Below, piece by piece: positions 3,462 through 49,545 of a stretch of 64,000 nt of DNA. The stretch lies in assembly GCF_053078305.1 (NCBI RefSeq), contig NZ_CP166879.1; one strand, written 5' to 3'. Numbering within the stretch: position 1 is the first letter of the stretch; every line of letters starts with the position of its first letter. The position numbers and the translations under genes are program-made. The notes beneath the pieces were generated by a model. The model was not told the DNA's origin. It saw nothing but the letters and a program-made list of their open reading frames with translations, and searched no databases.

Positions 3462-3478
3462 TTCTTTTTTAACTCTCA

Positions 3479-3506
3479 CGCTTACCCTGAATATTCAGGG
3501 TAAGCG
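3479..3506. terminator. 28-bp perfect palindrome CGCTTACCCTGAAT|ATTCAGGGTAAGCG downstream of maeB; putative terminator or insulator hairpin
   Basis: Exact reverse-complement symmetry read from sequence; the T-run precedes rather than follows it, so not a canonical intrinsic terminator. Confidence 0.45.
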
Positions 3507-3507
3507 G

Positions 3508-3751
3508 TCCAGCTGCAATATATTAGTAAAGCTTATTACTGAGTTTACGAATAATAAAAAAAGCAATATAAAATATCTCGATATTATTTTATTTATATTC
3601 ATGCGTCGCATATGAAAGTTTATTCATAACAGTAAATATCTCTCCATTCTTAGTGATCTACCTCACCTTTTAAACGCGCTTGCCGAATTTTGTTATTTAC
3701 TCTGACGAAAAATTGTCACGATACACGAAAGTTTTTCACAGGCGGCGACTC
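3508..3751 (+). promoter_or_regulatory. AT-rich promoter and regulatory region of the eut operon (expected EutR-dependent promoter)
   Basis: 244-bp AT-rich non-coding stretch immediately upstream of the first eut gene; exact promoter elements not mapped. Confidence 0.4.
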
Positions 3752-4087
3752 ATGGATAAAGAACGCATCATTCAGGAATTTGTGCCCGGCAAACAGGTCA
3801 CGCTGGCGCATCTCATCGCGCATCCCGGCGAGGAACTGGCGAAGAAAATCGGCGTTCCGGATGCGGGCGCAATTGGCATTATGACGCTAACTCCTGGCGA
3901 AACGGCGATGATCGCCGGTGATTTAGCATTGAAAGCCGCTGATGTGCATATCGGTTTTCTCGACCGCTTCAGTGGTGCATTGGTGATTTATGGCTCGGTG
4001 GGCGCAGTAGAAGAAGCGTTATCACAAACCGTCAGTGGCTTAGGTCGCTTATTAAATTATACGCTTTGTGAAATGACCAAAAGTTAA
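3752..4087 (+). CDS. eutS: ethanolamine microcompartment shell protein EutS (BMC domain)
   Basis: In frame of ORF 3680..4087; start placed at internal ATG 3752 ([15 protein letters not shown]...) giving 111 aa. Confidence 0.9.
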
Positions 4088-4099
4088 TACGAGGCATTC

Positions 4100-4579
4100 A
4101 TGAAACGAATTGCGTTTGTGGGTACCGTCGGGGCAGGGAAAACAACGTTATTTAATGCGTTGCAGGGGAATTATACCCTCGCCAGAAAAACACAGGCCGT
4201 GGAATTTAATGATAAGGGCGATATTGATACGCCGGGTGAATATTTTAGCCATCCCCGCTGGTATCACGCCTTAATTACCACGCTACAGGATGTGGACATG
4301 CTGATCTATGTCCACGGCGCGAATGACCCGGAAAGTCGGTTGCCTGCCGGGTTGCTGGATATTGGCGTCAGCAAACGGCAAATCGCCGTCATCAGTAAAA
4401 CGGACATGCCGGATGCTGACGTCGCCGCAACGCGAAAGTTATTGCTTGAGACGGGCTTCGAGGAGCCGATTTTCGAGCTAAACAGCCACGACCCGCAAAG
4501 CGTGCAGCAACTGGTGGATTATCTGGCATCTCTCACCAAACAGGAGGAAGCAGGTGAAAAAACTCATCACAGCGAATGA
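4100..4579 (+). CDS. eutP: EutP, P-loop NTPase / acetate kinase of the eut operon
   Basis: 159 aa, Walker A motif GTVGAGKTT. Confidence 0.93.
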   Translation: MKRIAFVGTVGAGKTTLFNALQGNYTLARKTQAVEFNDKGDIDTPGEYFSHPRWYHALITTLQDVDMLIYVHGANDPESRLPAGLLDIGVSKRQIAVISKTDMPDADVAATRKLLLETGFEEPIFELNSHDPQSVQQLVDYLASLTKQEEAGEKTHHSE

Positions 4580-5255
4580 TATTCGTGAAGCACACGCGCG
4601 CGGCGAACAGGCAATGTCCGTGGTTCTGCGCGCCAGCATTATTACCCCGGAAGCCCGTGAAGTGGCGGATCTACTGGGTTTTACCATCACCGAATGTGAT
4701 GAATCGTCCCCGGTAACGGCGTCCGTTCCCGCCAGCGTGCCAGCCGATAAAACCGAAAGTCAGCGCATCCGCGAAACCATCATTGCCCAGCTGCCGGAAG
4801 GCCAGTTTACCGAAAGCCTGGTCGCGCAGTTGATGGAAAAAGTGATGAAGGAAAAACAGTCGCTGGAGCAGGGTGCAATGCAGCCGAGCTTCAAATCGGT
4901 GACCGGCAAAGGCGGCATCAAAGTGATTGATGGCAGCAGCGTCAAGTTTGGTCGTTTCGACGGCGCAGAGCCGCATTGCGTGGGCTTAACTGACCTTGTG
5001 ACCGGAGACGACGGCAGCAGCATGGCCGCTGGTTTTATGCAGTGGGACAACGCATTCTTCCCGTGGACCCTGAACTACGACGAAATCGACATGGTGCTGG
5101 AAGGGGAGCTGCATGTTCGCCACGAAGGCGAAACCATGATCGCCAAAGCAGGCGACGTAATGTTTATCCCGAAAGGCTCCAGCATCGAATTTGGTACGAC
5201 ATCCAGCGTGAAATTCCTGTATGTCGCCTGGCCGGCTAACTGGCAATCCCTATGA
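4554..5255 (+). CDS. eutQ: EutQ, cupin-fold protein / acetate kinase
   Basis: 233 aa; GTG start preceded by AGGAGG; overlaps eutP 3' end by 26 nt. Confidence 0.9.
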   Translation: MKKLITANDIREAHARGEQAMSVVLRASIITPEAREVADLLGFTITECDESSPVTASVPASVPADKTESQRIRETIIAQLPEGQFTESLVAQLMEKVMKEKQSLEQGAMQPSFKSVTGKGGIKVIDGSSVKFGRFDGAEPHCVGLTDLVTGDDGSSMAAGFMQWDNAFFPWTLNYDEIDMVLEGELHVRHEGETMIAKAGDVMFIPKGSSIEFGTTSSVKFLYVAWPANWQSL

Positions 5256-6055
5256 AAGATTTCATCACCGAAGCATGGCTAAGAGCGAACCATACGCTCA
5301 GCGAAGGCGCAGAGATCCATCTCCCTGCGGACAGTCGCCTGACGCCCTCTGCCCGGGAGTTGCTGGAAAGCCGCCATCTGCGCATCAAGTTTATTGACGA
5401 GCAGGGCCGCCTGTTTGTTGACGATGAACAGCAGCAGCCGCAGCCCGTTCATGGGCTAACCAGTAGCGATGAACATCCGCAGGCGTGCTGCGAACTGTGC
5501 CGCCAGCCGGTGGCAAAAAAGCCGGATACGCTGACTCACCTGTCGGCGGAAAAAATGGTCGCCAAAAGCGATCCGCGTCTGGGTTTTCGCGCGGTTCTCG
5601 ACAGCACCATTGCGCTGGCAGTGTGGCTGCAAATTGAACTGGCGGAACCGTGGCAGCCGTGGCTGGCGGATATCCGTTCGCGTCTTGGCAACATTATGCG
5701 CGCCGATGCGCTGGGGGAACCGCTGGGCTGCCAGGCGATTGTCGGGCTTTCTGACGAAGATCTGCATCGGCTTTCTCATCAGCCGCTGCGCTATCTCGAC
5801 CACGATCATCTGGTGCCGGAAGCGCGCCACGGGCGCGATGCTGCGTTGCTCAATCTGCTACGCACCAAAGTGCGGGAAACCGAAACCGTAGCGGCGCAGG
5901 TGTTTATCACCCGCAGCTTTGAAGTATTACGCCCGGACATCTTGCAGGCGCTGAACCGGCTTTCCAGCACGGTCTACGTGATGATGATCCTGAGCGTAAC
6001 GAAGCCGCCGCTAACGGTGAAGCAGATCCAACAACGACTGGGGGAAACGCAATGA
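5252..6055 (+). CDS. eutT: EutT corrinoid (cobalamin) adenosyltransferase
   Basis: 267 aa; ATGA start/stop overlap with eutQ; cysteine motif CCELC. Confidence 0.93.
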
Positions 6056-7068
6056 TTATTGAACGTTGTCGTGAACTGGCGTTGCGAGCGCCCGCCAGAG
6101 TGGTTTTTCCGGATGCGTTAGATCAACGTGTGCTGAAAGCGGCGCAATATTTACATCAACAAGGTCTGGCAACGCCCATTATGGTCGCCAATCCGTTTGA
6201 ACTTCGTCAGTTTGCGCTCAGTCATGGCGTAGCGATGGACGGGCTACAGGTGATTGATCCGCATGGCAACCTCGCAATGCGGGAAGAATTTGCTCATCGC
6301 TGGCTGGCCCGCGCGGGCGAAAAAACGCCGCCGGATGCGCTGGAAAAACTTACCGATCCGCTGATGTTCGCCGCAGCAATGGTCAGCGCCGGTAAAGCGG
6401 ATGTCTGTATCGCGGGCAACCTCTCTTCCACGGCGAATGTGCTGCGTGCCGGATTACGCATTATCGGCTTGCAGCCAGGCTGTAAAACGCTCTCATCCAT
6501 TTTCCTGATGCTGCCACAGTACAGTGGCCCCGCGTTGGGCTTTGCCGATTGCAGCGTGGTACCACAGCCGACGGCGGCGCAGCTGGCGGATATCGCGCTT
6601 GCCAGCGCCGAAACCTGGCGCGCCATCACCGGAGAAGAGCCGCGCGTGGCGATGCTGTCGTTTTCCAGTAACGGTAGCGCCCGTCACCCCTGCGTTGCCA
6701 ATGTCCAGCAGGCGACAGAAATCGTCCGTGAGCGCGCACCAAAGCTGGTAGTCGATGGCGAGTTGCAGTTTGACGCCGCCTTCGTGCCGGAAGTGGCGGC
6801 GCAAAAAGCGCCTGCCAGCCCGCTACAGGGCAAGGCCAATGTGATGGTTTTTCCGTCGCTGGAAGCCGGAAATATTGGCTACAAAATCGCACAACGACTC
6901 GGCGGATATCGTGCCGTCGGGCCATTGATACAAGGACTTGCCGCGCCGATGCACGATCTCTCTCGTGGTTGTAGCGTGCAGGAAATTATCGAGCTGGCGC
7001 TGGTGGCAGCTGTGCCGCGTCAGACAGAAATGAACCGCGAAAGCAGTTTACAAACACTGGTTGAATGA
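6052..7068 (+). CDS. eutD: EutD phosphotransacetylase
   Basis: 338 aa PTA-family protein; ATGA overlap with eutT. Confidence 0.95.
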
Positions 7069-7106
7069 ACGGTCCCGTTCTGGACCCTGATAAAGAGGAA
7101 AGCACA

Positions 7107-7400
7107 ATGGAAGCATTAGGAATGATCGAAACCCGGGGCCTGGTTGCACTGATTGAGGCTTCTGACGCGATGGTGAAAGCTGCGCGCGTCAAGCTGGTTG
7201 GTGTTAAGCAGATTGGCGGCGGCCTGTGTACTGCCATGGTTCGTGGTGATGTTGCAGCCTGTAAAGCGGCGACCGATGCCGGTGCCGCAGCGGCACAGCG
7301 TATCGGCGAGCTGGTATCTGTACACGTTATCCCGCGTCCGCACGGCGACCTGGAAGAAGTGTTCCCGATCGGCCTGAAAGGCGATAGCAGCAACCTGTAA
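7107..7400 (+). CDS. eutM: microcompartment major shell protein EutM (BMC-H)
   Basis: In frame of ORF 7065..7400; start at ATG 7107 after GAGGAA; 97 aa [26 protein letters not shown]. Confidence 0.93.
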
Positions 7401-7418
7401 TCACCCTGTGTGACGTCG

Positions 7419-7440
7419 ATTCGGGCGTCACGCTCTCTCA
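7419..7440 (+). promoter_or_regulatory. hairpin GTGACG-N10-CGTCAC in eutM-eutN intergenic region (candidate mRNA processing/stability element)
   Basis: Inverted repeat read from sequence in the 106-bp eutM-eutN gap. Confidence 0.3.
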
Positions 7441-7506
7441 TTTTTCATTTTACCTTCCGCGGAGGGTAGGGGGAGCTTTTACCTGAAATACGCCACGGAG
7501 GCGGGT

Positions 7507-7794
7507 ATGAAACTGGCAGTCGTCACTGGACAAATTGTTTGTACCGTACGCCATCACGGACTGGCGCATGACAAATTGCTGATGGTGGAAATGATTGATC
7601 CACAAGGTAATCCTGACGGGCAATGTGCCGTCGCCATCGACAATATTGGCGCGGGAACCGGGGAGTGGGTGTTGCTGGTGAGTGGCAGTTCCGCCCGCCA
7701 GGCGCATAAAAGCGAAACGTCACCGGTCGATCTGTGCGTGATTGGCATCGTCGATGAGGTGGTGTCTGGCGGTCAGGTAATTTTCCACAAATAA
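7507..7794 (+). CDS. eutN: microcompartment vertex protein EutN (CcmL/PduN family)
   Basis: 95 aa MKLAVVTGQIVCTVRHHGLAHDKLLMVEM. Confidence 0.93.
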   Translation: MKLAVVTGQIVCTVRHHGLAHDKLLMVEMIDPQGNPDGQCAVAIDNIGAGTGEWVLLVSGSSARQAHKSETSPVDLCVIGIVDEVVSGGQVIFHK

Positions 7795-7805
7795 GGCAGA
7801 ACATC

Positions 7806-9209
7806 ATGAATCAACAGGATATTGAACAGGTGGTGAAAGCGGTACTGCTGAAAATGCAAAGCAGTGACACGCCGCCCGCCGCCGTTCATGAGATGGGCGT
7901 TTTCGCGTCCCTGGATGACGCTGTTGCGGCAGCCAAAATTGCCCAGCAAGGGTTAAAGAGCGTGGCAATGCGCCAGTTAGCCATTGCTGCCATTCGTGAA
8001 GCAGGCGAAAAACACGCCAGAGATTTAGCGGAACTTGCCGTCAGTGAAACCGGCATGGGGCGCGTTGAAGATAAATTTGCAAAAAACGTCGCTCAGGCGC
8101 GCGGCACACCAGGCGTTGAGTGCCTCTCTCCGCAAGTGCTGACTGGCGACAACGGCCTGACCCTAATTGAAAACGCACCCTGGGGCGTGGTGGCTTCGGT
8201 GACGCCTTCCACTAACCCGGCGGCAACCGTAATTAACAACGCCATCAGCCTGATTGCCGCGGGCAACAGCGTCATTTTTGCCCCGCATCCGGCGGCGAAA
8301 AAAGTCTCCCAGCGGGCGATCACGCTGCTCAACCAGGCGATTGTTGCCGCAGGCGGGCCGGAAAACTTACTGGTTACTGTGGCAAATCCGGATATCGAAA
8401 CCGCGCAACGCTTGTTCAAGTTTCCGGGTATCGGCCTGCTGGTGGTGACCGGCGGCGAAGCGGTAGTAGAAGCGGCGCGTAAACACACCAATAAACGTCT
8501 GATTGCCGCAGGCGCTGGCAACCCGCCGGTAGTGGTGGATGAAACCGCTGACCTCGCCCGTGCTGCTCAGTCCATCGTCAAAGGCGCGTCTTTCGATAAC
8601 AACATCATTTGTGCCGACGAAAAGGTACTGATTGTTGTTGATAGCGTAGCCGATGAACTGATGCGTCTGATGGAAGGCCAGCACGCGGTGAAACTGACCG
8701 CAGAACAGGCGCAGCAGCTGCAACCGGTGTTGCTGAAAAATATCGACGAGCGCGGAAAAGGCACCGTCAGCCGTGACTGGGTTGGTCGCGATGCGGCGAA
8801 AATCGCGGCGGCAATCGGCCTGAACGTGCCGCAAGAAACGCGTTTGCTGTTTGTGGAAACCACCGCAGAACATCCGTTTGCCGTGACTGAACTGATGATG
8901 CCGGTGTTGCCCGTCGTGCGCGTCGCCAACGTGGCGGATGCCATTGCGCTGGCGGTGAAACTGGAGGGCGGTTGCCACCACACGGCGGCAATGCACTCGC
9001 GCAACATCGAAAACATGAACCAGATGGCGAATGCTATTGATACCAGCATTTTCGTTAAGAACGGACCGTGCATTGCCGGGCTGGGGCTGGGCGGGGAAGG
9101 CTGGACCACCATGACCATCACCACGCCAACCGGTGAAGGGGTAACCAGCGCGCGTACGTTTGTCCGTCTGCGTCGCTGTGTATTAGTCGATGCGTTTCGC
9201 ATTGTTTAA
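7806..9209 (+). CDS. eutE: EutE CoA-acylating acetaldehyde dehydrogenase
   Basis: 467 aa aldehyde dehydrogenase family. Confidence 0.95.
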   Translation: MNQQDIEQVVKAVLLKMQSSDTPPAAVHEMGVFASLDDAVAAAKIAQQGLKSVAMRQLAIAAIREAGEKHARDLAELAVSETGMGRVEDKFAKNVAQARGTPGVECLSPQVLTGDNGLTLIENAPWGVVASVTPSTNPAATVINNAISLIAAGNSVIFAPHPAAKKVSQRAITLLNQAIVAAGGPENLLVTVANPDIETAQRLFKFPGIGLLVVTGGEAVVEAARKHTNKRLIAAGAGNPPVVVDETADLARAAQSIVKGASFDNNIICADEKVLIVVDSVADELMRLMEGQHAVKLTAEQAQQLQPVLLKNIDERGKGTVSRDWVGRDAAKIAAAIGLNVPQETRLLFVETTAEHPFAVTELMMPVLPVVRVANVADAIALAVKLEGGCHHTAAMHSRNIENMNQMANAIDTSIFVKNGPCIAGLGLGGEGWTTMTITTPTGEGVTSARTFVRLRRCVLVDAFRIV

Positions 9210-9219
9210 GGAGTAACCG

Positions 9220-10056
9220 ATGGCGCACGACGAACAATGGCTCACCCCACGTCTGCAAACGGCGGCAACGCTGTGTAACCAGACGCCCGCCGCGACGGAA
9301 TCCCCGCTGTGGCTGGGGGTGGATCTGGGCACCTGCGATGTGGTTTCGATGGTTGTCGACCGCGACGGTCAGCCGGTGGCGGTATGCCTCGACTGGGCCG
9401 ATGTGGTCCGCGACGGCATCGTCTGGGATTTCTTCGGCGCTGTCACCATTGTTCGTCGCCATCTCGACACTCTTGAGCAGCAATTCGGTCGCCGTTTTAG
9501 CCATGCGGCGACTTCATTTCCTCCAGGTACGGACCCGCGTATTTCCATCAACGTGCTGGAGTCTGCTGGACTGGAAGTGAGCCATGTGCTGGATGAGCCA
9601 ACCGCAGTCGCGGATCTGCTGCAACTGGACAACGCCGGTGTAGTGGATATCGGCGGCGGCACTACCGGCATTGCCATCGTGAAAAAGGGCAAGGTGACGT
9701 ACTCGGCGGATGAAGCAACCGGCGGACATCACATCTCTCTGACTCTCGCCGGAAATCGCCGTATTTCGCTGGAAGAGGCAGAGCAGTACAAGCGCGGTCA
9801 CGGTGACGAGATTTGGCCCGCGGTGAAACCGGTGTACGAAAAAATGGCGGACATTGTCGCCCGGCATATTGAAGGACAGGGCATTACTGATTTATGGCTG
9901 GCGGGCGGCTCCTGTATGCAGCCGGGCGTGGCGGAACTGTTTCGCAAACAATTCCCGGCGTTACAGGTGCATTTACCGCAGCACAGTTTGTTTATGACCC
10001 CGCTGGCGATCGCCAGTAGTGGGCGAGAGAAAGCGGAGGGGCTATATGCAAAATGA
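9220..10056 (+). CDS. eutJ: EutJ chaperone-like ATPase (actin/Hsp70 fold)
   Basis: 278 aa; AAGGAG upstream of ATG. Confidence 0.93.
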   Translation: MAHDEQWLTPRLQTAATLCNQTPAATESPLWLGVDLGTCDVVSMVVDRDGQPVAVCLDWADVVRDGIVWDFFGAVTIVRRHLDTLEQQFGRRFSHAATSFPPGTDPRISINVLESAGLEVSHVLDEPTAVADLLQLDNAGVVDIGGGTTGIAIVKKGKVTYSADEATGGHHISLTLAGNRRISLEEAEQYKRGHGDEIWPAVKPVYEKMADIVARHIEGQGITDLWLAGGSCMQPGVAELFRKQFPALQVHLPQHSLFMTPLAIASSGREKAEGLYAK

Positions 10057-11233
10057 ATTGCAGACCGCGCTCTTTCAGGCGTTCGATACCCTGAATCTGC
10101 AACGGGTAAAAACATTTAGCGTTCCACCGGTGACGCTTTGCGGTCCGGGCTCGGTGAGCAGTTGCGGGCAGCAAGCGCAAACGCGTGGGCTGAAACATCT
10201 GTTCGTGATGGCAGACAGCTTTTTGCATCAGGCAGGGATGACCGCCGGGCTGACGCGTAGCCTGGCCGTTAAAGGTATCGCCATGACGCTCTGGCCATGT
10301 CCGGTGGGCGAACCTTGCATTACCGACGTGTGTGCAGCCGTGGCGCAGTTGCGTGAGTCAGGCTGTGATGGGGTGATCGCGTTTGGCGGCGGCTCGGTGC
10401 TGGATGCGGCGAAAGCCGTGACGTTGCTGGTGACGAACCCGGATAGCACGCTGGCAGAGATGTCAGAAACCAGCGTTCTGCAACCGCGCTTGCCGCTGAT
10501 TGCCATTCCAACTACCGCCGGAACCGGCTCTGAAACCACCAATGTAACGGTGATTATCGACGCGGTGAGCGGGCGCAAGCAGGTGTTAGCCCATGCCTCG
10601 CTGATGCCGGATGTGGCGATCCTCGACGCCGCATTGACCGAAGGTGTGCCGTCGCATGTCACGGCGATGACCGGCATTGATGCGTTAACCCATGCCATTG
10701 AAGCATACAGCGCCCTGAACGCTACACCGTTTACCGACAGTCTGGCGATTGGTGCCATTGCGATGATTGGCAAATCGCTGCCGAAAGCGGTGGGCTACGG
10801 TCACGACCTTGCCGCGCGCGAGAGCATGTTGCTGGCTTCATGTATGGCGGGAATGGCGTTTTCCAGTGCGGGTCTTGGGTTGTGCCACGCGATGGCGCAT
10901 CAGCCGGGCGCGGCGCTGCATATTCCGCACGGTCTGGCGAACGCTATGTTGCTGCCAACGGTGATGGAGTTTAACCGGATGGTTTGTCGCGAACGCTTTA
11001 GTCAGATTGGTCGGGCACTGCGAACTAAAAAATCCGACGATCGTGACGCTATTAACGCGGTAAGTGAGCTGATTGCGGAAGTTGGGATTGGTAAACGACT
11101 GGGCGATGTTGGCGCGACATCTGCGCATTACGGTGCATGGGCGCAGGCCGCGCAGGAAGATATTTGTCTGCGCAGCAACCCGCGTACCGCCAGCCTGGAA
11201 CAGATTGTCGGCCTGTACGCAGCGGCGCAATAA
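10046..11233 (+). CDS. eutG: EutG iron-containing alcohol dehydrogenase
   Basis: In frame of ORF 10019..11233; start at ATG 10046 after GGAGGG (MQNELQTALFQ...), 395 aa; overlaps eutJ 3' end by 11 nt. Confidence 0.93.
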   Translation: MQNELQTALFQAFDTLNLQRVKTFSVPPVTLCGPGSVSSCGQQAQTRGLKHLFVMADSFLHQAGMTAGLTRSLAVKGIAMTLWPCPVGEPCITDVCAAVAQLRESGCDGVIAFGGGSVLDAAKAVTLLVTNPDSTLAEMSETSVLQPRLPLIAIPTTAGTGSETTNVTVIIDAVSGRKQVLAHASLMPDVAILDAALTEGVPSHVTAMTGIDALTHAIEAYSALNATPFTDSLAIGAIAMIGKSLPKAVGYGHDLAARESMLLASCMAGMAFSSAGLGLCHAMAHQPGAALHIPHGLANAMLLPTVMEFNRMVCRERFSQIGRALRTKKSDDRDAINAVSELIAEVGIGKRLGDVGATSAHYGAWAQAAQEDICLRSNPRTASLEQIVGLYAAAQ

Positions 11234-11235
11234 AT

Positions 11236-11417
<182 letters not shown>

Positions 11418-11449
11418 TAATAAATAACAACTAACAGGGAGTAAAGGCG

Positions 11450-12676
11450 ATGGGAATTAACGAAATCATCATGTACATCATGATGTTCTTTATGCTGATA
11501 GCTGCCGTAGACAGGATCCTGTCGCAGTTCGGCGGTTCTGCTCGTTTCCTCGGTAAGTTCGGTAAAAGTATCGAAGGATCAGGCGGTCAGTTCGAAGAAG
11601 GCTTTATGGCAATGGGCGCACTGGGCCTGGCGATGGTCGGTATGACCGCGCTGGCACCGGTACTGGCTCACGTACTCGGGCCGGTAATTATCCCGGTTTA
11701 CGAAATGCTCGGCGCAAACCCGTCAATGTTCGCCGGAACGCTGCTGGCGTGCGATATGGGCGGCTTCTTCCTCGCCAAAGAGCTGGCGGGCGGCGACGTA
11801 GCAGCGTGGCTATACTCAGGGTTAATTCTCGGGTCGATGATGGGGCCAACGATTGTGTTTTCCATTCCGGTGGCGCTCGGCATTATCGAACCTTCTGACC
11901 GTCGTTATCTGGCGCTCGGCGTGCTGGCGGGCATTGTGACCATTCCGATTGGCTGTATTGCTGGTGGTCTGGTAGCTATGTACTCCGGTGTTCAGATCAA
12001 CGGCCAGCCGGTGGAATTCACTTTCGCCCTGATCCTGATGAACATGATCCCGGTGATCATTGTTGCGATTCTGGTGGCGCTGGGGCTGAAATTCATCCCG
12101 GAAAAAATGATCAACGGCTTCCAGATCTTCGCCAAATTCCTCGTTGCATTGATCACCCTCGGTCTTGCCGCTGCGGTAGTGAAATTCCTGCTTGGCTGGG
12201 AACTGATCCCCGGTCTGGATCCTATCTTTATGGCCCCTGGCGATAAACCCGGTGAGGTGATGCGCGCCATTGAAGTTATCGGTTCTATCTCCTGCGTTCT
12301 GTTAGGGGCGTATCCGATGGTGCTGCTGCTGACCCGCTGGTTTGAAAAACCGCTGATGAGCGTCGGTAAGGTGCTGAATATGAACAACATCGCGGCAGCC
12401 GGCATGGTGGCAACGCTTGCCAACAACATCCCGATGTTCGGCATGATGAAGCAGATGGATACCCGCGGCAAAGTCATCAACTGCGCCTTCGCCGTTTCCG
12501 CTGCTTTCGCCCTGGGCGACCACTTAGGCTTCGCCGCTGCCAACATGAATGCCATGATCTTCCCGATGATTGTCGGCAAGTTGATCGGCGGCGTAACGGC
12601 GATTGGCGTGGCGATGATGCTGGTGCCAAAAGACGACGCGACCGCGGCTAAAACCGAAGCGGAGGCACAATCGTGA
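11450..12676 (+). CDS. eutH: EutH ethanolamine permease
   Basis: 408 aa polytopic membrane protein. Confidence 0.95.
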   Translation: MGINEIIMYIMMFFMLIAAVDRILSQFGGSARFLGKFGKSIEGSGGQFEEGFMAMGALGLAMVGMTALAPVLAHVLGPVIIPVYEMLGANPSMFAGTLLACDMGGFFLAKELAGGDVAAWLYSGLILGSMMGPTIVFSIPVALGIIEPSDRRYLALGVLAGIVTIPIGCIAGGLVAMYSGVQINGQPVEFTFALILMNMIPVIIVAILVALGLKFIPEKMINGFQIFAKFLVALITLGLAAAVVKFLLGWELIPGLDPIFMAPGDKPGEVMRAIEVIGSISCVLLGAYPMVLLLTRWFEKPLMSVGKVLNMNNIAAAGMVATLANNIPMFGMMKQMDTRGKVINCAFAVSAAFALGDHLGFAAANMNAMIFPMIVGKLIGGVTAIGVAMMLVPKDDATAAKTEAEAQS

Positions 12677-14076
12677 ACACTCGCCAGCTACTGAGCGTCG
12701 GTATCGATATCGGCACCACCACCACCCAGGTGATTTTCTCCCACCTGGAACTGGTTAACCGTGCGGCGGTGTCGCAGGTGCCGCGCTACGAATTCATCAA
12801 ACGCGAAATTAGCTGGCAAAGCCCGGTGTTCTTTACCCCTGTCGATAAACAGGGTGGTTTAAAAGAAGCGGAACTGAAATCGCTGATTTTAGAGCAATAT
12901 CAGGCTGCGGGCATTGCGCCGGAAAGCGTTGATTCTGGTGCCATCATCATCACCGGTGAAAGCGCGAAAACCCGCAATGCTCGCCCGGCGGTGATGGCGC
13001 TCTCTCAGTCGCTGGGCGATTTTGTCGTCGCCAGCGCCGGGCCGCACCTCGAATCCGTGATCGCCGGTCACGGTGCCGGGGCGCAAACCCTTTCTGAACA
13101 ACGGCTGTGTCGGGTACTGAATATCGACATCGGCGGTGGCACCGCGAACTACGCTCTGTTCGATGCCGGAAAAATCAGCGGCACTGCCTGCCTCAACGTC
13201 GGTGGTCGCCTGCTGGAAACCGACAGCCAGGGGCGCGTGGTTTACGCTCATAAACCGGGGCAGATGATTGTGGATGAGTGCTTCGGTGCAGGCACTGACG
13301 TCCGTTCGCTGACCGGCGCGCAGCTGGTGCAGGTTACCCGGCGGATGGCAGAGCTGATTGTCGAAGTGATTGACGGAACGCTTTCGCCGCTCGCGCAGGC
13401 ATTAATGCAAACCGGTTTGCTGCCCGCAGGTGTTACGCCCGAAATCATTACGCTTTCTGGCGGCGTGGGCGAATGTTATCGCCACCAGCCCGCCGACCCG
13501 TTCTGTTTTGCCGATATTGGCCCGCTTCTGGCAACGGCGCTGCATGACCATCCGCGCCTGCGTGAGATGAACGTGCAGTTTCCGGCGCAAACCGTACGCG
13601 CCACGGTGATTGGCGCGGGTGCACATACCCTTTCGCTCTCTGGCAGCACAATCTGGCTGGAGGGCGTACAACTGCCGCTGCGCAATTTGCCGGTGGCGAT
13701 CCCGATTGATGAAACGGATCTGGTGAGTGCCTGGCAACAGGCGCTGCTTCAGCTGGATCTTGATCCTAAAACTGACGCGTACGTGCTGGCGCTTCCCGCC
13801 TCGCTGCCTGTGCGTTACGCCGCGGTACTGACGGTCATCAACGCGCTGGTCGATTTCGTCGCGCGTTTTCCGAATCCGCATCCCCTGCTGGTGGTGGCCG
13901 GGCAGGACTTTGGTAAAGCTCTGGGCATGTTGTTGCGCCCACAGCTACAACAACTCCCGTTGGCAGTCATTGACGAAGTGATTGTCCGCGCGGGGGACTA
14001 TATCGACATTGGTACGCCTCTTTTTGGCGGATCGGTTGTGCCGGTGACGGTGAAATCACTCGCATTTCCTTCCTGA
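12673..14076 (+). CDS. eutA: EutA ethanolamine ammonia-lyase reactivase
   Basis: 467 aa; GTG start overlapping eutH stop. Confidence 0.93.
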   Translation: MNTRQLLSVGIDIGTTTTQVIFSHLELVNRAAVSQVPRYEFIKREISWQSPVFFTPVDKQGGLKEAELKSLILEQYQAAGIAPESVDSGAIIITGESAKTRNARPAVMALSQSLGDFVVASAGPHLESVIAGHGAGAQTLSEQRLCRVLNIDIGGGTANYALFDAGKISGTACLNVGGRLLETDSQGRVVYAHKPGQMIVDECFGAGTDVRSLTGAQLVQVTRRMAELIVEVIDGTLSPLAQALMQTGLLPAGVTPEIITLSGGVGECYRHQPADPFCFADIGPLLATALHDHPRLREMNVQFPAQTVRATVIGAGAHTLSLSGSTIWLEGVQLPLRNLPVAIPIDETDLVSAWQQALLQLDLDPKTDAYVLALPASLPVRYAAVLTVINALVDFVARFPNPHPLLVVAGQDFGKALGMLLRPQLQQLPLAVIDEVIVRAGDYIDIGTPLFGGSVVPVTVKSLAFPS

Positions 14077-14087
14077 GGGAACGACTT

Positions 14088-15449
14088 ATGAAACTAAAGA
14101 CCACATTGTTCGGCAATGTATATCAGTTTAAGGATGTAAAAGAGGTGCTGGCTAAAGCCAACGAACTGCGTTCGGGGGATGTGCTGGCGGGCGTCGCAGC
14201 GGCAAGCTCACAGGAGCGCGTGGCAGCAAAGCAGGTGTTGTCGGAAATGACCGTAGCGGACATCCGCAATAATCCGGTGATTGCCTATGAAGATGACTGC
14301 GTTACGCGGTTGATTCAGGACGACGTTAACGAAACGGCCTATAACCAGATTAAAAACTGGAGCATCAGCGAACTGCGTGAGTATGTGCTGAGCGACGAAA
14401 CCAGCGTGGACGACATTGCCTTTACCCGCAAAGGGCTGACTTCGGAAGTGGTTGCGGCGGTAGCGAAGATTTGCTCCAACGCGGACCTGATCTACGGCGC
14501 GAAGAAAATGCCGGTGATCAAAAAGGCCAATACCACTATCGGTATTCCGGGCACCTTCAGCGCCCGTTTGCAACCGAACGATACCCGTGACGACGTGCAA
14601 AGTATCGCCGCGCAAATCTACGAAGGGCTTTCCTTCGGGGTGGGCGATGCGGTGATCGGCGTCAACCCGGTAACTGACGACGTGGAAAACTTAAGCCGCG
14701 TGCTGGACACCATCTATGGCGTGATCGACAAATTCAACATCCCAACTCAGGGCTGCGTACTGGCGCACGTCACCACCCAGATCGAAGCGATTCGTCGCGG
14801 CGCGCCTGGCGGACTGATTTTCCAGAGTATCTGTGGCAGCGAAAAAGGGCTGAAAGAGTTTGGCGTGGAACTGGCGATGCTCGACGAAGCGCGCGCAGTG
14901 GGCGCAGAGTTCAACCGTATCGCCGGGGAAAACTGCCTCTACTTCGAAACCGGACAAGGCTCAGCGCTATCCGCTGGCGCTAACTTCGGCGCAGACCAGG
15001 TGACGATGGAAGCACGTAACTATGGGCTGGCGCGTCATTACGATCCGTTTATCGTCAACACCGTGGTCGGCTTTATTGGGCCGGAGTATCTCTACAACGA
15101 CCGCCAGATTATCCGTGCGGGCTTAGAAGATCACTTTATGGGCAAGCTGAGCGGCATCTCTATGGGCTGTGACTGCTGTTACACCAACCACGCTGACGCT
15201 GACCAGAACCTCAACGAAAACCTGATGATCCTGCTCGCCACCGCAGGCTGCAACTACATCATGGGGATGCCGCTGGGTGATGACATCATGCTCAACTACC
15301 AGACCACCGCATTCCACGATACCGCCACTGTGCGTCAGTTACTCAACCTGCGCCCGTCACCGGAGTTTGAACGCTGGCTGGAAAGCATGGGCATTATGGC
15401 AAACGGTCGCCTGACCAAACGGGCGGGCGATCCGTCACTGTTCTTCTGA
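14088..15449 (+). CDS. eutB: ethanolamine ammonia-lyase large subunit
   Basis: 453 aa MKLKTTLFGNVYQFKDVKEVLAKANE; starts 11 nt after eutA stop. Confidence 0.97.
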   Translation: MKLKTTLFGNVYQFKDVKEVLAKANELRSGDVLAGVAAASSQERVAAKQVLSEMTVADIRNNPVIAYEDDCVTRLIQDDVNETAYNQIKNWSISELREYVLSDETSVDDIAFTRKGLTSEVVAAVAKICSNADLIYGAKKMPVIKKANTTIGIPGTFSARLQPNDTRDDVQSIAAQIYEGLSFGVGDAVIGVNPVTDDVENLSRVLDTIYGVIDKFNIPTQGCVLAHVTTQIEAIRRGAPGGLIFQSICGSEKGLKEFGVELAMLDEARAVGAEFNRIAGENCLYFETGQGSALSAGANFGADQVTMEARNYGLARHYDPFIVNTVVGFIGPEYLYNDRQIIRAGLEDHFMGKLSGISMGCDCCYTNHADADQNLNENLMILLATAGCNYIMGMPLGDDIMLNYQTTAFHDTATVRQLLNLRPSPEFERWLESMGIMANGRLTKRAGDPSLFF

Positions 15450-15469
15450 TGACGCGGAGATAACACATC

Positions 15470-16357
15470 ATGGATCAAAAACAGATTGAAGAAATTGTAC
15501 GCAGCGTGATGGCGTCAATGGGACAAGTGGCCCCCGCGCCGTCAGAAGCAAAGTGCGCCACCACCAACTGTGCGGCACCGGTGACCTCGGAAAGCTGCGC
15601 GCTGGATTTAGGTTCTGCGGAAGCAAAAGCGTGGATTGGTGTTGAAAACCCACATCGCGCAGACGTATTAACAGAACTGCGCCGCAGCACCGTGGCCCGC
15701 GTTTGTACCGGTCGTGCCGGTCCGCGTCCGCGTACCCAGGCGCTGCTGCGTTTCCTGGCCGATCACTCTCGTTCGAAAGATACCGTACTTAAAGAAGTGC
15801 CGGAAGAGTGGGTGAAAGCGCAGGGCTTGCTGGAAGTACGCTCTGAAATTAGCGACAAAAATCTCTACCTGACTCGCCCGGATATGGGCCGCCGCCTGTG
15901 TGCAGAAGCTGTTGAAGCGCTGAAAGCGCAGTGTGTTGCCAATCCGGACGTGCAGGTCGTTATTTCTGATGGCCTGTCAACTGATGCGATCACCGTGAAC
16001 TACGAAGAGATCCTGCCACCGCTGATGGCGGGCCTGAAACAGGCCGGGCTGAAAGTCGGTACACCATTCTTTGTTCGTTATGGTCGCGTGAAGATTGAAG
16101 ATCAGATCGGTGAGATCCTCGGCGCGAAAGTGGTGATCCTGCTGGTGGGCGAACGTCCGGGGTTGGGTCAGTCAGAAAGCCTCTCCTGCTACGCCGTTTA
16201 CTCGCCACGTATGGCGACCACCGTTGAGGCCGATCGCACCTGTATCTCTAACATTCACCAGGGCGGCACGCCGCCGGTTGAAGCCGCAGCCGTCATTGTG
16301 GATTTGGCGAAACGTATGCTGGAGCAGAAAGCATCCGGCATCAACATGACCCGATAA
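15470..16357 (+). CDS. eutC: ethanolamine ammonia-lyase small subunit
   Basis: 295 aa. Confidence 0.97.
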
Positions 16358-16366
16358 GGAGGCATC

Positions 16367-17026
16367 ATGCCAGCTTTAGATTTGATTCGACCGTCTGTCA
16401 CCGCTATGCGGGTGATTGCCTCCGTTAACGCCGATTTTGCGCGTGAACTGAAATTGCCGCCGCATATTCGTAGCCTCGGTCTGATTTCTGCCGATTCTGA
16501 CGACGTAACCTACATTGCGGCTGACGAAGCGACCAAGCAGGCGATGGTGGAAGTGGTGTATGGCCGCTCGCTGTATGCGGGCGCTGCACACGGCCCGTCA
16601 CCGACTGCCGGTGAAGTGCTGATTATGCTTGGTGGGCCAAACCCGGCGGAAGTGCGTGCCGGTCTGGATGCGATGGTTGCGCATATTGAAAATGGCGCAG
16701 CTTTCCAGTGGGCTAATGACGCGCAAGATACGGCATTCCTGGCACATGTAGTTTCGCGTACCGGTTCTTATCTCTCATCAACCGCCGGGATCACGCTTGG
16801 CGATCCGATGGCGTATCTGGTGGCACCGCCGCTGGAAGCGACCTATGGCATTGATGCAGCCCTGAAGTCTGCCGACGTACAGCTGGTGACCTATGTCCCG
16901 CCACCGTCTGAAACCAACTACTCGGCAGCATTTTTAACCGGTAGCCAGGCCGCGTGTAAAGCAGCCTGTAACGCCTTTACCGATGCAGTGCTGGAAATCG
17001 CGCGTAATCCAATCCAGCGTGCGTAA
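16367..17026 (+). CDS. eutL: microcompartment shell protein EutL (tandem BMC domains)
   Basis: 219 aa. Confidence 0.95.
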
Positions 17027-17038
17027 TGGAGGTTGCCG

Positions 17039-17539
17039 ATGATCAATGCACTGGGATTGCTGGAAGTGGACGGCATGGTCGCTGCGATAGATGCAGCGGA
17101 TGCCATGCTCAAAGCAGCTAACGTTCGTCTGCTCAGTCACGAAGTGCTTGACCCTGGTCGCTTAACGCTGGTGGTGGAAGGCGATCTGGCGGCGTGTCGT
17201 GCTGCGCTGGACGCAGGTTGTGCTGCCGCGATGCGTACCGGGCGTGTCATCAGCCGTAAGGAGATCGGTCGGCCAGACGATGACACCCAGTGGCTGGTTA
17301 CTGGCTTTAACCGCCAGCCGAAGCAACCCGTAAAGGAACCCGACGCGCCAGTTATCGTCGCGGAATCTGCTGACGAGTTGTTGGCGCTGTTAACATCAGT
17401 ACGTCAGGGAATGACGGCAGGAGAAGTGGCTGCCCACTTTGGCTGGCCGCTGGAAAAAGCCAGAAATGCGCTCGAACAGCTCTTTTCTGCCGGGACGTTA
17501 CGTAAACGCAGTAGTCGTTATCGTCTCAAGCCCCATTAA
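17039..17539 (+). CDS. eutK: microcompartment shell protein EutK (BMC domain with C-terminal helix-turn-helix-like extension)
   Basis: ORF track begins at TTG 17033; ATG at 17039 follows GGAGG at proper spacing, giving 166 aa. Confidence 0.9.
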   Translation: MINALGLLEVDGMVAAIDAADAMLKAANVRLLSHEVLDPGRLTLVVEGDLAACRAALDAGCAAAMRTGRVISRKEIGRPDDDTQWLVTGFNRQPKQPVKEPDAPVIVAESADELLALLTSVRQGMTAGEVAAHFGWPLEKARNALEQLFSAGTLRKRSSRYRLKPH

Positions 17540-17550
17540 CCTGTCGGAGG

Positions 17551-17577
17551 TGCCGGGTGTCCTACAACACCCGGCAT
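17551..17577 (+). promoter_or_regulatory. hairpin TGCCGGGTG-N8-CACCCGGCA immediately upstream of eutR start codon
   Basis: 9-bp perfect stem read from sequence; no obvious Shine-Dalgarno between it and the eutR ATG. Confidence 0.35.
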
Positions 17578-17584
17578 TAACATC

Positions 17585-19544
<1,960 letters not shown>

Positions 19545-21511: not shown

Positions 21512-21608
21512 GCCGGATGCGGCGTGAACGCCTTATCCGGCCTACAAAATTTCGCAAATTCAATATATTGCAGGAAAAAGTAGGCCTGATAAGCGTAGCG
21601 CATCAGGC
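21512..21608. repeat. REP pair (BIME) downstream of yfeZ
   Basis: GCCGGATGCGGCGTGAACGCCTTATCCGGCCTAC (21512-21545) and inverted GTAGGCCTGATAAGCGTAGCGCATCAGGC (21580-21608). Confidence 0.85.
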
Positions 21609-46142: not shown

Positions 46143-46218
46143 TGGTGGGTCGTGCAGGATTCGAACCTGCGACCAATTGATTAAAAGTCAACTGCTCTAC
46201 CAACTGAGCTAACGACCC
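46143..46218 (-). tRNA. lysV: tRNA-Lys (anticodon UUU)
   Basis: Reverse complement reads GGGTCGTTAGCTCAGTTGGTAGAGCAGTTGACTTTTAATCAATTGGTCGCAGGTTCGAATCCTGCACGACCCACCA. Confidence 0.97.
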
Positions 46219-46222
46219 GAAG

Positions 46223-46298
46223 TGGTGGGTGATGACGGGATCGAACCGCCGACCCCCTCCTTGTAAGGGAGGTGCTCTCCCAGCTGAGCTAATCACCC
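46223..46298 (-). tRNA. valY: tRNA-Val (anticodon UAC)
   Basis: Reverse complement reads GGGTGATTAGCTCAGCTGGGAGAGCACCTCCCTTACAAGGAGGGGGTCGGCGGTTCGATCCCGTCATCACCCACCA. Confidence 0.97.
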
Positions 46299-46344
46299 AC
46301 TTCGGTACTTCACATTTTTACAAGAAATTTAGCTGGTGAGAAAG

Positions 46345-46420
46345 TGGTGGGTGATGACGGGATCGAACCGCCGACCCCCTCCTTGTAAGGGAGGTGCTCT
46401 CCCAGCTGAGCTAATCACCC
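46345..46420 (-). tRNA. valX: tRNA-Val (anticodon UAC)
   Basis: Identical 76-nt sequence to valY. Confidence 0.97.
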
Positions 46421-46464
46421 ACTTCTCAATTTCTTGCTACACGGCGGAGACTACATAAAGTAGT

Positions 46465-46540
46465 TGGTGGGTGATGACGGGATCGAACCGCCGACCCCCT
46501 CCTTGTAAGGGAGGTGCTCTCCCAGCTGAGCTAATCACCC
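46465..46540 (-). tRNA. valU: tRNA-Val (anticodon UAC)
   Basis: Identical 76-nt sequence to valY; first gene of the tRNA operon. Confidence 0.97.
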
Positions 46541-49239: not shown

Positions 49240-49315
<76 letters not shown>

Positions 49316-49354
49316 AATTTTGCACCCAGCAAATTTGGTACGTAAACGCATCGT

Positions 49355-49430
<76 letters not shown>

Positions 49431-49469
49431 AATTTTGCACCCAGCAAATTTGGTACGTAAACGCATCGT

Positions 49470-49545
<76 letters not shown>

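Follow-up and report, generated by a model that had tools for sequence, protein, structure and literature searches.

In E. coli K-12 MG1655, the cryptic prophage CPZ-55 separates two neighboring genes of the ethanolamine utilization (eut) operon, eutA and eutB, which raises the question of whether the eut locus found in a 64,000-nt stretch of contig NZ_CP166879.1 (hereafter the window) is interrupted in the same way, and what its eutA-eutB junction represents. A first-pass annotation had claimed that 17 co-directional genes are present with no insertion at this junction, and had stated that MG1655 carries the prophage there. The locus, eutSPQTDMNEJGHABCLKR, spans 3752-18658 on the + strand, between maeB and hemF. 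All 17 products cover their NCBIfam models end to end, with zero internal stops, which bears out the claimed gene content and orientation. The features are as follows.

3462-3751 (+): maeB-eutS intergenic region, where the main, EutR-dependent promoter is presumed to lie on the basis of the Salmonella/E. coli literature
3752-4087 (+): eutS, shell protein (NF012012, 246 bits, model 1-111 of 111; 100% identical to five references)
4100-4579 (+): eutP (NF012011, 352 bits, model 1-159 of 159)
4554-5255 (+): eutQ (NF012001, 501 bits, model 1-233 of 233)
5252-6055 (+): eutT, corrinoid adenosyltransferase (NF011595, 568 bits, model 1-267 of 267)
6052-7068 (+): eutD, phosphotransacetylase (NF007233, 410 bits; 338 aa, same length as references)
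7107-7400 (+): eutM, hexameric (BMC-H) shell protein (NF012018, 212 bits, model 1-97 of 97; 100% identical to six references)
7507-7794 (+): eutN, pentameric vertex protein (NF011992, 210 bits, model 1-95 of 95)
7806-9209 (+): eutE, acetaldehyde dehydrogenase (NF011927, 738 bits, full length)
9220-10056 (+): eutJ (NF011660, 402 bits)
10046-11233 (+): eutG, alcohol dehydrogenase (NF011998, 889 bits, model 1-395 of 395)
11288-11369 (+): REP-type element (Rfam naRNA4/CssrE) in the eutG-eutH spacer of 216 nt (RF02564, 65.3 bits vs a gathering score of 59.5)
11450-12676 (+): eutH, ethanolamine permease (NF011665, 874 bits, model 1-408 of 408)
12673-14076 (+): eutA, ethanolamine ammonia-lyase reactivase (NF007991, 1073 bits, model 1-467 of 467)
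14069-14076 (+): empty attB core CTTCCTGA, with the stop codon of eutA inside it (the same 8 bp flank CPZ-55 and two other intZ islands)
14077-14087 (+): 11-nt eutA-eutB spacer GGGAACGACTT, read from the sequence
14088-15449 (+): eutB, ethanolamine ammonia-lyase large subunit (NF011649, 665 bits; 453 aa, ATG start)
15470-16357 (+): eutC, ethanolamine ammonia-lyase small subunit (NF003971, 340 bits)
16367-17026 (+): eutL, trimeric shell protein (NF011934, 401 bits)
17039-17539 (+): eutK, shell protein (NF012010, 362 bits, model 1-166 of 166)
17585-18658 (+): eutR, AraC-type activator (NF007522, 790 bits, residues 1-350 on model 1-350 of 350)

The 16 junctions between these genes measure, in order, 12, −26, −4, −4, 38, 106, 11, 10, −11, 216, −4, 11, 20, 9, 12, and 45 nt, so that five gene pairs overlap, seven are 9-20 nt apart, and four are separated more widely. 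The description of the genes as mostly coupled is therefore fair. A scan of the operon returned 2 promoter-like sites (8.6 expected) and 19 terminator-like sites (18.1 expected). Three opposite-strand open reading frames inside eutA/eutB (12889-13251, 13402-13881, and 14208-14615) are entirely contained in conserved coding sequence that is itself strongly supported.

The gene set is that of a standard EUT1 locus. It encodes both subunits of the signature enzyme (EutB and EutC, with the scores listed above), a shell set in which the BMC-domain proteins EutS, EutM, EutK, and EutL as well as EutN match equivalog or subfamily models over their full length, and the pathway and cofactor-recycling proteins EutE, EutD, EutG, EutA, EutT, EutP, and EutQ, plus EutH and EutJ, all full length and above the curated cut-offs. 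The regulator is an AraC-type EutR encoded at the 3′ end, rather than an EutVW two-component system. Salmonella enterica LT2, although a different species, has an eut operon with the same gene content, gene order, and EutR-type regulation; this operon was reportedly described by Kofoid et al. in 1999 as comprising 17 genes. For the Eut proteins of E. coli K-12 W3110 and LT2, identities have been given only as >73% (PMC11334477). The N-terminal encapsulation peptides of EutC and EutE were recognized by identity to the N termini of MG1655 (residues 1-19 in EutC, where A20V is the single difference, and residues 1-23 in EutE); that these residues act as a targeting signal comes from the literature, in which EutC1-20 has been used (PMC11334477).

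At the junction itself, eutA (467 aa, GTG start, TGA stop, eight substitutions vs MG1655) is followed after only 11 nt by eutB, as had been claimed. The eutA stop codon and the spacer together form a Shine-Dalgarno-like GAGGG 8-9 nt 5′ of the eutB ATG, for which we infer a role in ribosome binding. The spacer and its flanks are identical in W3110, A16, 042, O2:H6, and EDL933. MG1655 and BW25113 (eut::CPZ-55) have the same genes, a 100% identical EutB protein, and the same eutA stop codon and 11 nt upstream of eutB, but in MG1655 6,790 bp of prophage follow the eutA stop codon, whereas none do in the window. According to the MG1655 annotation, CPZ-55 (record 2558691-2565480; intZ and yffL-yffS, on the opposite strand) lies between eutB (b2441) and eutA (b2451), and comparison of the junctions shows that the insertion point is immediately 3′ of the eutA TGA; the 8-bp repeat CTTCCTGA stands on both sides, and ...CTTCCTGAGGGAACGACTTATG is kept next to eutB. 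The statement on MG1655 was thus correct, and eutA and eutB are not contiguous in MG1655. The 8-bp duplication at the insertion site has been published (PMC6379469), and the eutA-eutB site is already described as a prophage insertion hot spot.

Neither CPZ-55 DNA (blastn with CPZ-55) nor an IntZ homologue (tblastn with IntZ) was found in the window, and its junction corresponds base for base to the left flank of attL joined to the right flank of attR, as deduced from MG1655, 1604D011, and F374. The window therefore holds the prophage-free arrangement, and, as judged from this match to the exact target of CPZ-55 and its relatives (core and flanks identical), its eutA-eutB junction is an unoccupied attB for IntZ-type tyrosine-integrase islands. 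Such islands are a family: the intZ end of CPZ-55 has matches in 413 of 5426 complete E. coli genomes, all four of the intZ-type islands examined sit at the eutA-eutB junction, and the three with both ends available are inserted at the same base. Two of them, of 10.4 and 12.4 kb, share with CPZ-55 the insertion base and the CTTCCTGA repeat, and the islands differ in cargo and size (6.8, 10.4, and 12.4 kb).

The prophage-free reading comes with a caveat. Contiguous eutA-eutB is the rule and not the exception, being found in 4964 of the 5426 complete genomes (∼91%), including K-12 W3110. The presence of CPZ-55 in W3110 was considered and rejected, as the reference sequence of this strain has contiguous eutA-eutB, consistent with PMC11334477. 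The operon is thus an ordinary uninterrupted eut locus in the common, presumably ancestral, state, and both this arrangement and the use of the site are already known in the literature.

Among complete RefSeq genomes, the best identity to the window DNA is 98.9-99.1%, and loci retrieved by their exact EutR/EutT protein are 96.6-99.1% identical to it; the source is thus an E. coli-like lineage without a close representative among the genomes compared. W3110, Nissle 1917, uropathogenic (UPEC) isolates, and EDL933 have the same 17 genes in the same order and maeB-hemF setting, with an identical eutA-eutB junction. In this group, ethanolamine use or Eut microcompartments have been shown (PMC11334477, PMC7617246, and PMC6652756). 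The window differs from them in alleles only, including an EutR of 357 aa vs 350 aa. Unlike the window, EDL933 has no REP element in its eutG-eutH spacer (99 nt, compared with 116 nt in strains 042 and 102651), and its eutT is shorter (732 nt). EutT S192R and Q252P are absent from a small six-strain reference panel, as is EutD V327M from the small reference panel; 551 blocks of public assemblies nevertheless contain the exact EutT protein. The EutB protein is shared at 100% identity with MG1655, EDL933, and A16, and this identity, despite an eutB DNA only 97.65% identical to that of MG1655 (2.35% divergence), indicates purifying selection.

The first-pass annotation had also suggested checking that no eut gene is frameshifted. 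No internal stop is present in any of the 17 genes, but a 1-nt deletion at the last codon of eutR had been overlooked. In the G-run at 18630-18633, the window has GGGG where A16 and MG1655 have GGGGG. The stop codon is consequently lost and seven residues (EGVTPNP) are added, which yields 357 instead of 350 aa and a convergent overlap of 17 nt with the 3′ end of hemF (18642). A homopolymer sequencing error was rejected as the cause, since thousands of assemblies contain the exact protein and the O145 strain RM9872 matches a 201-nt stretch at 100% identity. None of the 350 native residues is missing or differs from A16, and 5345 blocks of public assemblies contain the exact 357-aa protein. Because this widespread natural allele is annotated as intact by RefSeq, e.g. 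in PapRG-06-5, the extension is probably harmless.

Upstream of the operon, the mean column identity of the maeB-eutS region to five reference strains is 98%, and the 185 nt nearest to eutS are the same as in EDL933. Relative to all five references, 2 nt are deleted near 3565/3566, a deletion also present in four other loci (L015-L018). No convincing promoter was found upstream of eutS by a simple sigma-70 scan, which is ill-suited to an activator-dependent promoter. For both Salmonella and E. coli, a main promoter has been described together with an internal eutR promoter that is weak (PMC7617246).

We consider it very likely that the window holds a standard uninterrupted EUT1 locus, with an unoccupied attB at the eutA-eutB junction and read-through from the eutS promoter into eutBCLKR. 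As extrapolated from the literature, the EutR-dependent promoter upstream of eutS would, with no insertion in the way, drive transcription through eutA into eutBCLKR. The insertion in MG1655 spares the stop codon of eutA as well as the ribosome-binding region of eutB, so the damage would lie in the 6.8 kb of DNA on the opposite strand, which cut eutBCLKR off from the main promoter. With the prophage in place, the phenotype of BW25113 resembles that of an eut deletion (the interrupted form is Eut-minus), and scarless removal of the prophage from BW25113 restores the use of ethanolamine as nitrogen source (PMC11334477). In K-12, this use thus depends on an uninterrupted operon, and restoring the operon is enough to regain it (PMC11334477). 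In BW25113 eutB is not induced, and growth on ethanolamine as sole carbon source is strain-dependent (PMC7617246). Growth of the source strain on ethanolamine, like the fully functional microcompartment proposed by the first-pass annotation, is a prediction from sequence. Ethanolamine use also requires exogenous cobalamin, and the genes for cobalamin uptake and salvage lie outside the window.

Could the junction have been emptied rather than never filled? Site-specific excision regenerates attB scar-free, and precise loss of an IntZ island from an ancestor would fit the situation within K-12, where the island is present in MG1655 but absent from the W3110 reference, whose junction is base-identical to that of the window. 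Wild strains also carry diverse islands, in which intZ is 80-90% identical to that of K-12. However, both histories leave an identical sequence, which the data cannot separate, and with ∼91% of genomes unoccupied and no remnant of island DNA in the window, a never-occupied site is more economical; we regard excision as improbable. It is equally doubtful that an operon intact in sequence is impaired in its regulation, whether by the EutR extension, by the overlap of 17 nt between eutR and hemF, or by the loss of 2 nt upstream of eutS. The lost eutR stop codon, the location of the DNA-binding helix-turn-helix in the C-terminal part of AraC-family proteins, and the departure of the eutS upstream region from five references speak for impairment, but the native EutR residues are all kept, the exact 357-aa protein is abundant in public assemblies and annotated as intact, the 2-nt deletion is lineage-wide, and the structural genes look to be under purifying selection, which is unexpected with a dead activator.

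A more far-reaching proposal, to which we likewise give little credence, is that the junction is one state of a reversible switch, with the window in the ON state, and, separately, that the 357-aa EutR alters eut regulation or interferes with hemF via the convergent overlap. IntZ islands enter at a base that spares the stop codon of eutA as well as the ribosome-binding site of eutB, and they excise scar-free; in a given lineage, integration would thus turn eutBCLKR expression off and excision turn it on, as suggested by the contrast between MG1655 and W3110.

Beyond correct annotation, the significance of the standard, uninterrupted locus that we favor is small, with the stop-loss EutR allele and the island family at the eutA-eutB attB as minor leads. 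MG1655 and BW25113 are atypical, Eut-minus references, and MG1655 is not the norm for the eut locus, a lesson already in the literature. The nutrient ethanolamine, which derives from the gut and urine, has been linked to competitive fitness in E. coli pathogens and commensals alike.

The window holds a complete EUT1-type ethanolamine utilization locus with an empty attB, the chromosomal attachment site for IntZ-type islands at the eutA-eutB junction. All 17 eut genes are present and co-directional, as proposed in the first-pass annotation, and every product matches its family model with a score above the curated cut-off. As in other E. coli, the operon is flanked by maeB upstream and by hemF and amiA downstream on the opposite strand.

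Genes of the eut operon (+ strand; full-length matches to NCBIfam models, with details for eutA and eutB)
3752-4087, +, eutS
4100-4579, +, eutP
4554-5255, +, eutQ
5252-6055, +, eutT
6052-7068, +, eutD
7107-7400, +, eutM
7507-7794, +, eutN
7806-9209, +, eutE
9220-10056, +, eutJ
10046-11233, +, eutG
11450-12676, +, eutH
12673-14076, +, eutA, 467 aa, GTG start; NF007991, 1073 bits, model 1-467 of 467
14088-15449, +, eutB, 453 aa; NF011649, 665 bits, match essentially end to end
15470-16357, +, eutC
16367-17026, +, eutL
17039-17539, +, eutK
17585-18658, +, eutR

Of the 16 gene junctions, five are overlaps, seven are gaps of 9-20 nt, and four are wider gaps (38, 45, 106, and 216 nt), which makes the description of the genes as mostly coupled a fair one. 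No internal stop was found in any eut gene of the window, but a 1-nt deletion in eutR, by which the stop is lost, had been missed. EutB is 100% identical to its counterparts in MG1655, EDL933, and A16, with eutB DNA differing by 2.35% from MG1655. Residues 1-19 of EutC and 1-23 of EutE, N-terminal regions regarded in the literature as encapsulation signals (PMC11334477), are unchanged relative to MG1655. These comparisons support the integrity of the operon.

The eutA stop and eutB start are separated by an 11-nt spacer, GGGAACGACTT, read directly from the sequence and in agreement with the ORF map. A Shine-Dalgarno-like GAGGG, which spans the eutA stop and lies 8-9 nt ahead of the eutB start, is a putative eutB ribosome-binding element. 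The RefSeq record of MG1655 places "cryptic prophage CPZ-55", whose genes intZ and yffL-yffS lie on the opposite strand, at 2558691-2565480 between eutB (b2441) and eutA (b2451), just as the first-pass annotation states. In an alignment of the window with the MG1655 junctions, CPZ-55 starts directly after the eutA TGA, both its ends carry the repeat CTTCCTGA, and its eutB-side end keeps ...CTTCCTGAGGGAACGACTT-ATG; the insertion therefore leaves both the eutA frame and GAGGG undamaged. Neither CPZ-55 DNA (blastn) nor an IntZ homologue (tblastn) was found anywhere in the 64-kb window, and its junction is base-for-base that of five unoccupied strains (W3110, A16, 042, an O2:H6 strain, and EDL933).

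Of 5426 complete genomes of E. coli, 4964 have a contiguous site, as assessed with a 1011-nt probe centred on the eutA-eutB junction. W3110 is among the contiguous strains (NC_007779.1, locus positions 12126-12138) and lacks CPZ-55, unlike MG1655. The insertion is thus not universal even in K-12, and the two standard K-12 references differ in it. The intZ end of CPZ-55 was matched in 413 genomes of the complete set. The match was at least 99% identical in 216, nearly all of those sampled being laboratory K-12 derivatives, and 80-90% identical in ∼194, from human, pig, cattle, poultry, and environmental isolates. All four diverged islands inspected lie at the eutA-eutB junction. The two with both ends available, in 1604D011 (12.4 kb) and F374 (10.4 kb), are inserted at the same base and flanked by CTTCCTGA; the cargo of the other two differs. 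Among the few dozen other genomes without a contiguous junction, the only one inspected, strain 102651, has an island together with IS elements (IS903B and IS3) truncating eutA.

Islands sharing this attB in loci from other genomes (L020, 14177-26415; L021, 16178-26394; L004, 1-8844; L003, 9357-17300) are roughly 7-12 kb, with intZ 80-90% identical to the K-12 copy. Their variable cargo includes HTH regulators, a terminase-small-subunit-like protein, an HNH endonuclease, and a yffS homologue, joined in two strains by gadC, murI, and a decarboxylase remnant. They resemble phage-satellite-type elements.

The window is collinear with E. coli chromosomes, and the best complete RefSeq genomes are only 98.9-99.1% identical to it over 24-kb stretches. 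In the stretch 1-24000 these are A16 (otter), ETEC6335, and PapRG-06-5; in 40000-64000 they are an environmental isolate and PapRG-06-5, followed by O157:H7. Loci found through exact-protein matches of EutR and EutT are likewise only 96.6-99.1% identical to the window. These identities and differing best matches suggest a sparsely sampled or mosaic lineage. None of the six strains in the reference panel carries EutT S192R or Q252P, or EutD V327M; public assemblies nevertheless contain the exact EutT in 551 blocks. The eutT of EDL933 is shorter (732 versus 804 nt). The 216-nt eutG-eutH spacer contains a REP-type element at 11288-11369 (Rfam naRNA4 (CssrE), 65.3 bits). In EDL933 this spacer is just 99 nt long, and in 042 and 102651 it is 116 nt; the element is therefore a presence/absence polymorphism within the operon. 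Outside the operon, an Rfam ES036 (CssrF) match at 21546-21587 falls in the yfeZ-yfeY gap, which measures ∼206 nt in the window, A16, and PapRG-06-5 versus ∼60 nt in 042, the O2:H6 strain, and W3110; the match is probably a further mobile insert of the REP-like kind. Tandem tRNA arrays vary in copy number between the window and PapRG-06-5, with three versus two tRNA-Ala(GGC) at 49240-49545, and three tRNA-Val(TAC) plus tRNA-Lys(TTT) versus one Val plus Lys at 46143-46540.

The eutR product is 357 rather than 350 aa. A G-run at 18630-18633 reads GGGG, versus GGGGG in A16 and MG1655, which retains the last glycine codon, puts TGA out of frame, and adds seven residues (EGVTPNP; 18630-18658), so that eutR overlaps the 3' end of convergent hemF (18642) by 17 nt. 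A sequencing error was ruled out, as 5345 blocks of public assemblies encode exactly this protein and STEC O145 strain RM9872 matches the 201 nt around the deletion at 100% identity. RefSeq annotates the 357-aa EutR of PapRG-06-5 as intact. It is a common natural allele, and the extension is probably not a defect. Relative to A16, EDL933, MG1655, 042, and the O2:H6 strain, the window also lacks 2 nt at ∼3565/3566, in an AT-rich stretch of the maeB-eutS spacer ∼185 nt ahead of eutS; this deletion is common to the lineage of four other-genome loci (L015-L018). Impairment of the operon through either change is possible but disfavoured, since both alleles are widely distributed and the structural eut genes bear signs of purifying selection. 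That the site was once occupied and then precisely vacated we rate as low, given the 91% frequency of unoccupied sites, although excised and never-occupied histories leave the same sequence and are not separable.

The prophage-free reading is supported. An 8-bp duplication and a prevalence of 8% among 638 genomes were already reported (PMC6379469), and Dadswell et al. labelled the site a "prophage insertion hot spot", with the operon conserved in 47/47 sequenced UPEC and a novel prophage at the site in one (PMC6652756). Clare et al. found neither eutB induction nor compartments in BW25113, and both in Nissle 1917, whose operon is intact (PMC7617246). According to Jallet et al., BW25113 acts like a eut deletion and regains growth on ethanolamine as nitrogen source when the prophage is removed scarlessly; ethanolamine as the only source of both carbon and nitrogen did not support growth of any K-12 strain they used (PMC11334477).

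From the cited work, transcription from an EutR-dependent promoter upstream of eutS would proceed through eutA into eutBCLKR, so that lyase, reactivase, shell proteins, and regulator would be made together in the presence of ethanolamine and cobalamin. The 6.8 kb of opposite-strand DNA in MG1655 would uncouple eutBCLKR from that promoter. It is established that E. coli is incapable of de novo cobalamin synthesis, and any ethanolamine phenotype therefore needs external corrinoid; cobalamin-related genes lie outside the window. The prophage-free reading is textbook-level knowledge for the eut locus, and the operon in the window has the arrangement that is usual in E. coli, shared by most genomes and already described.
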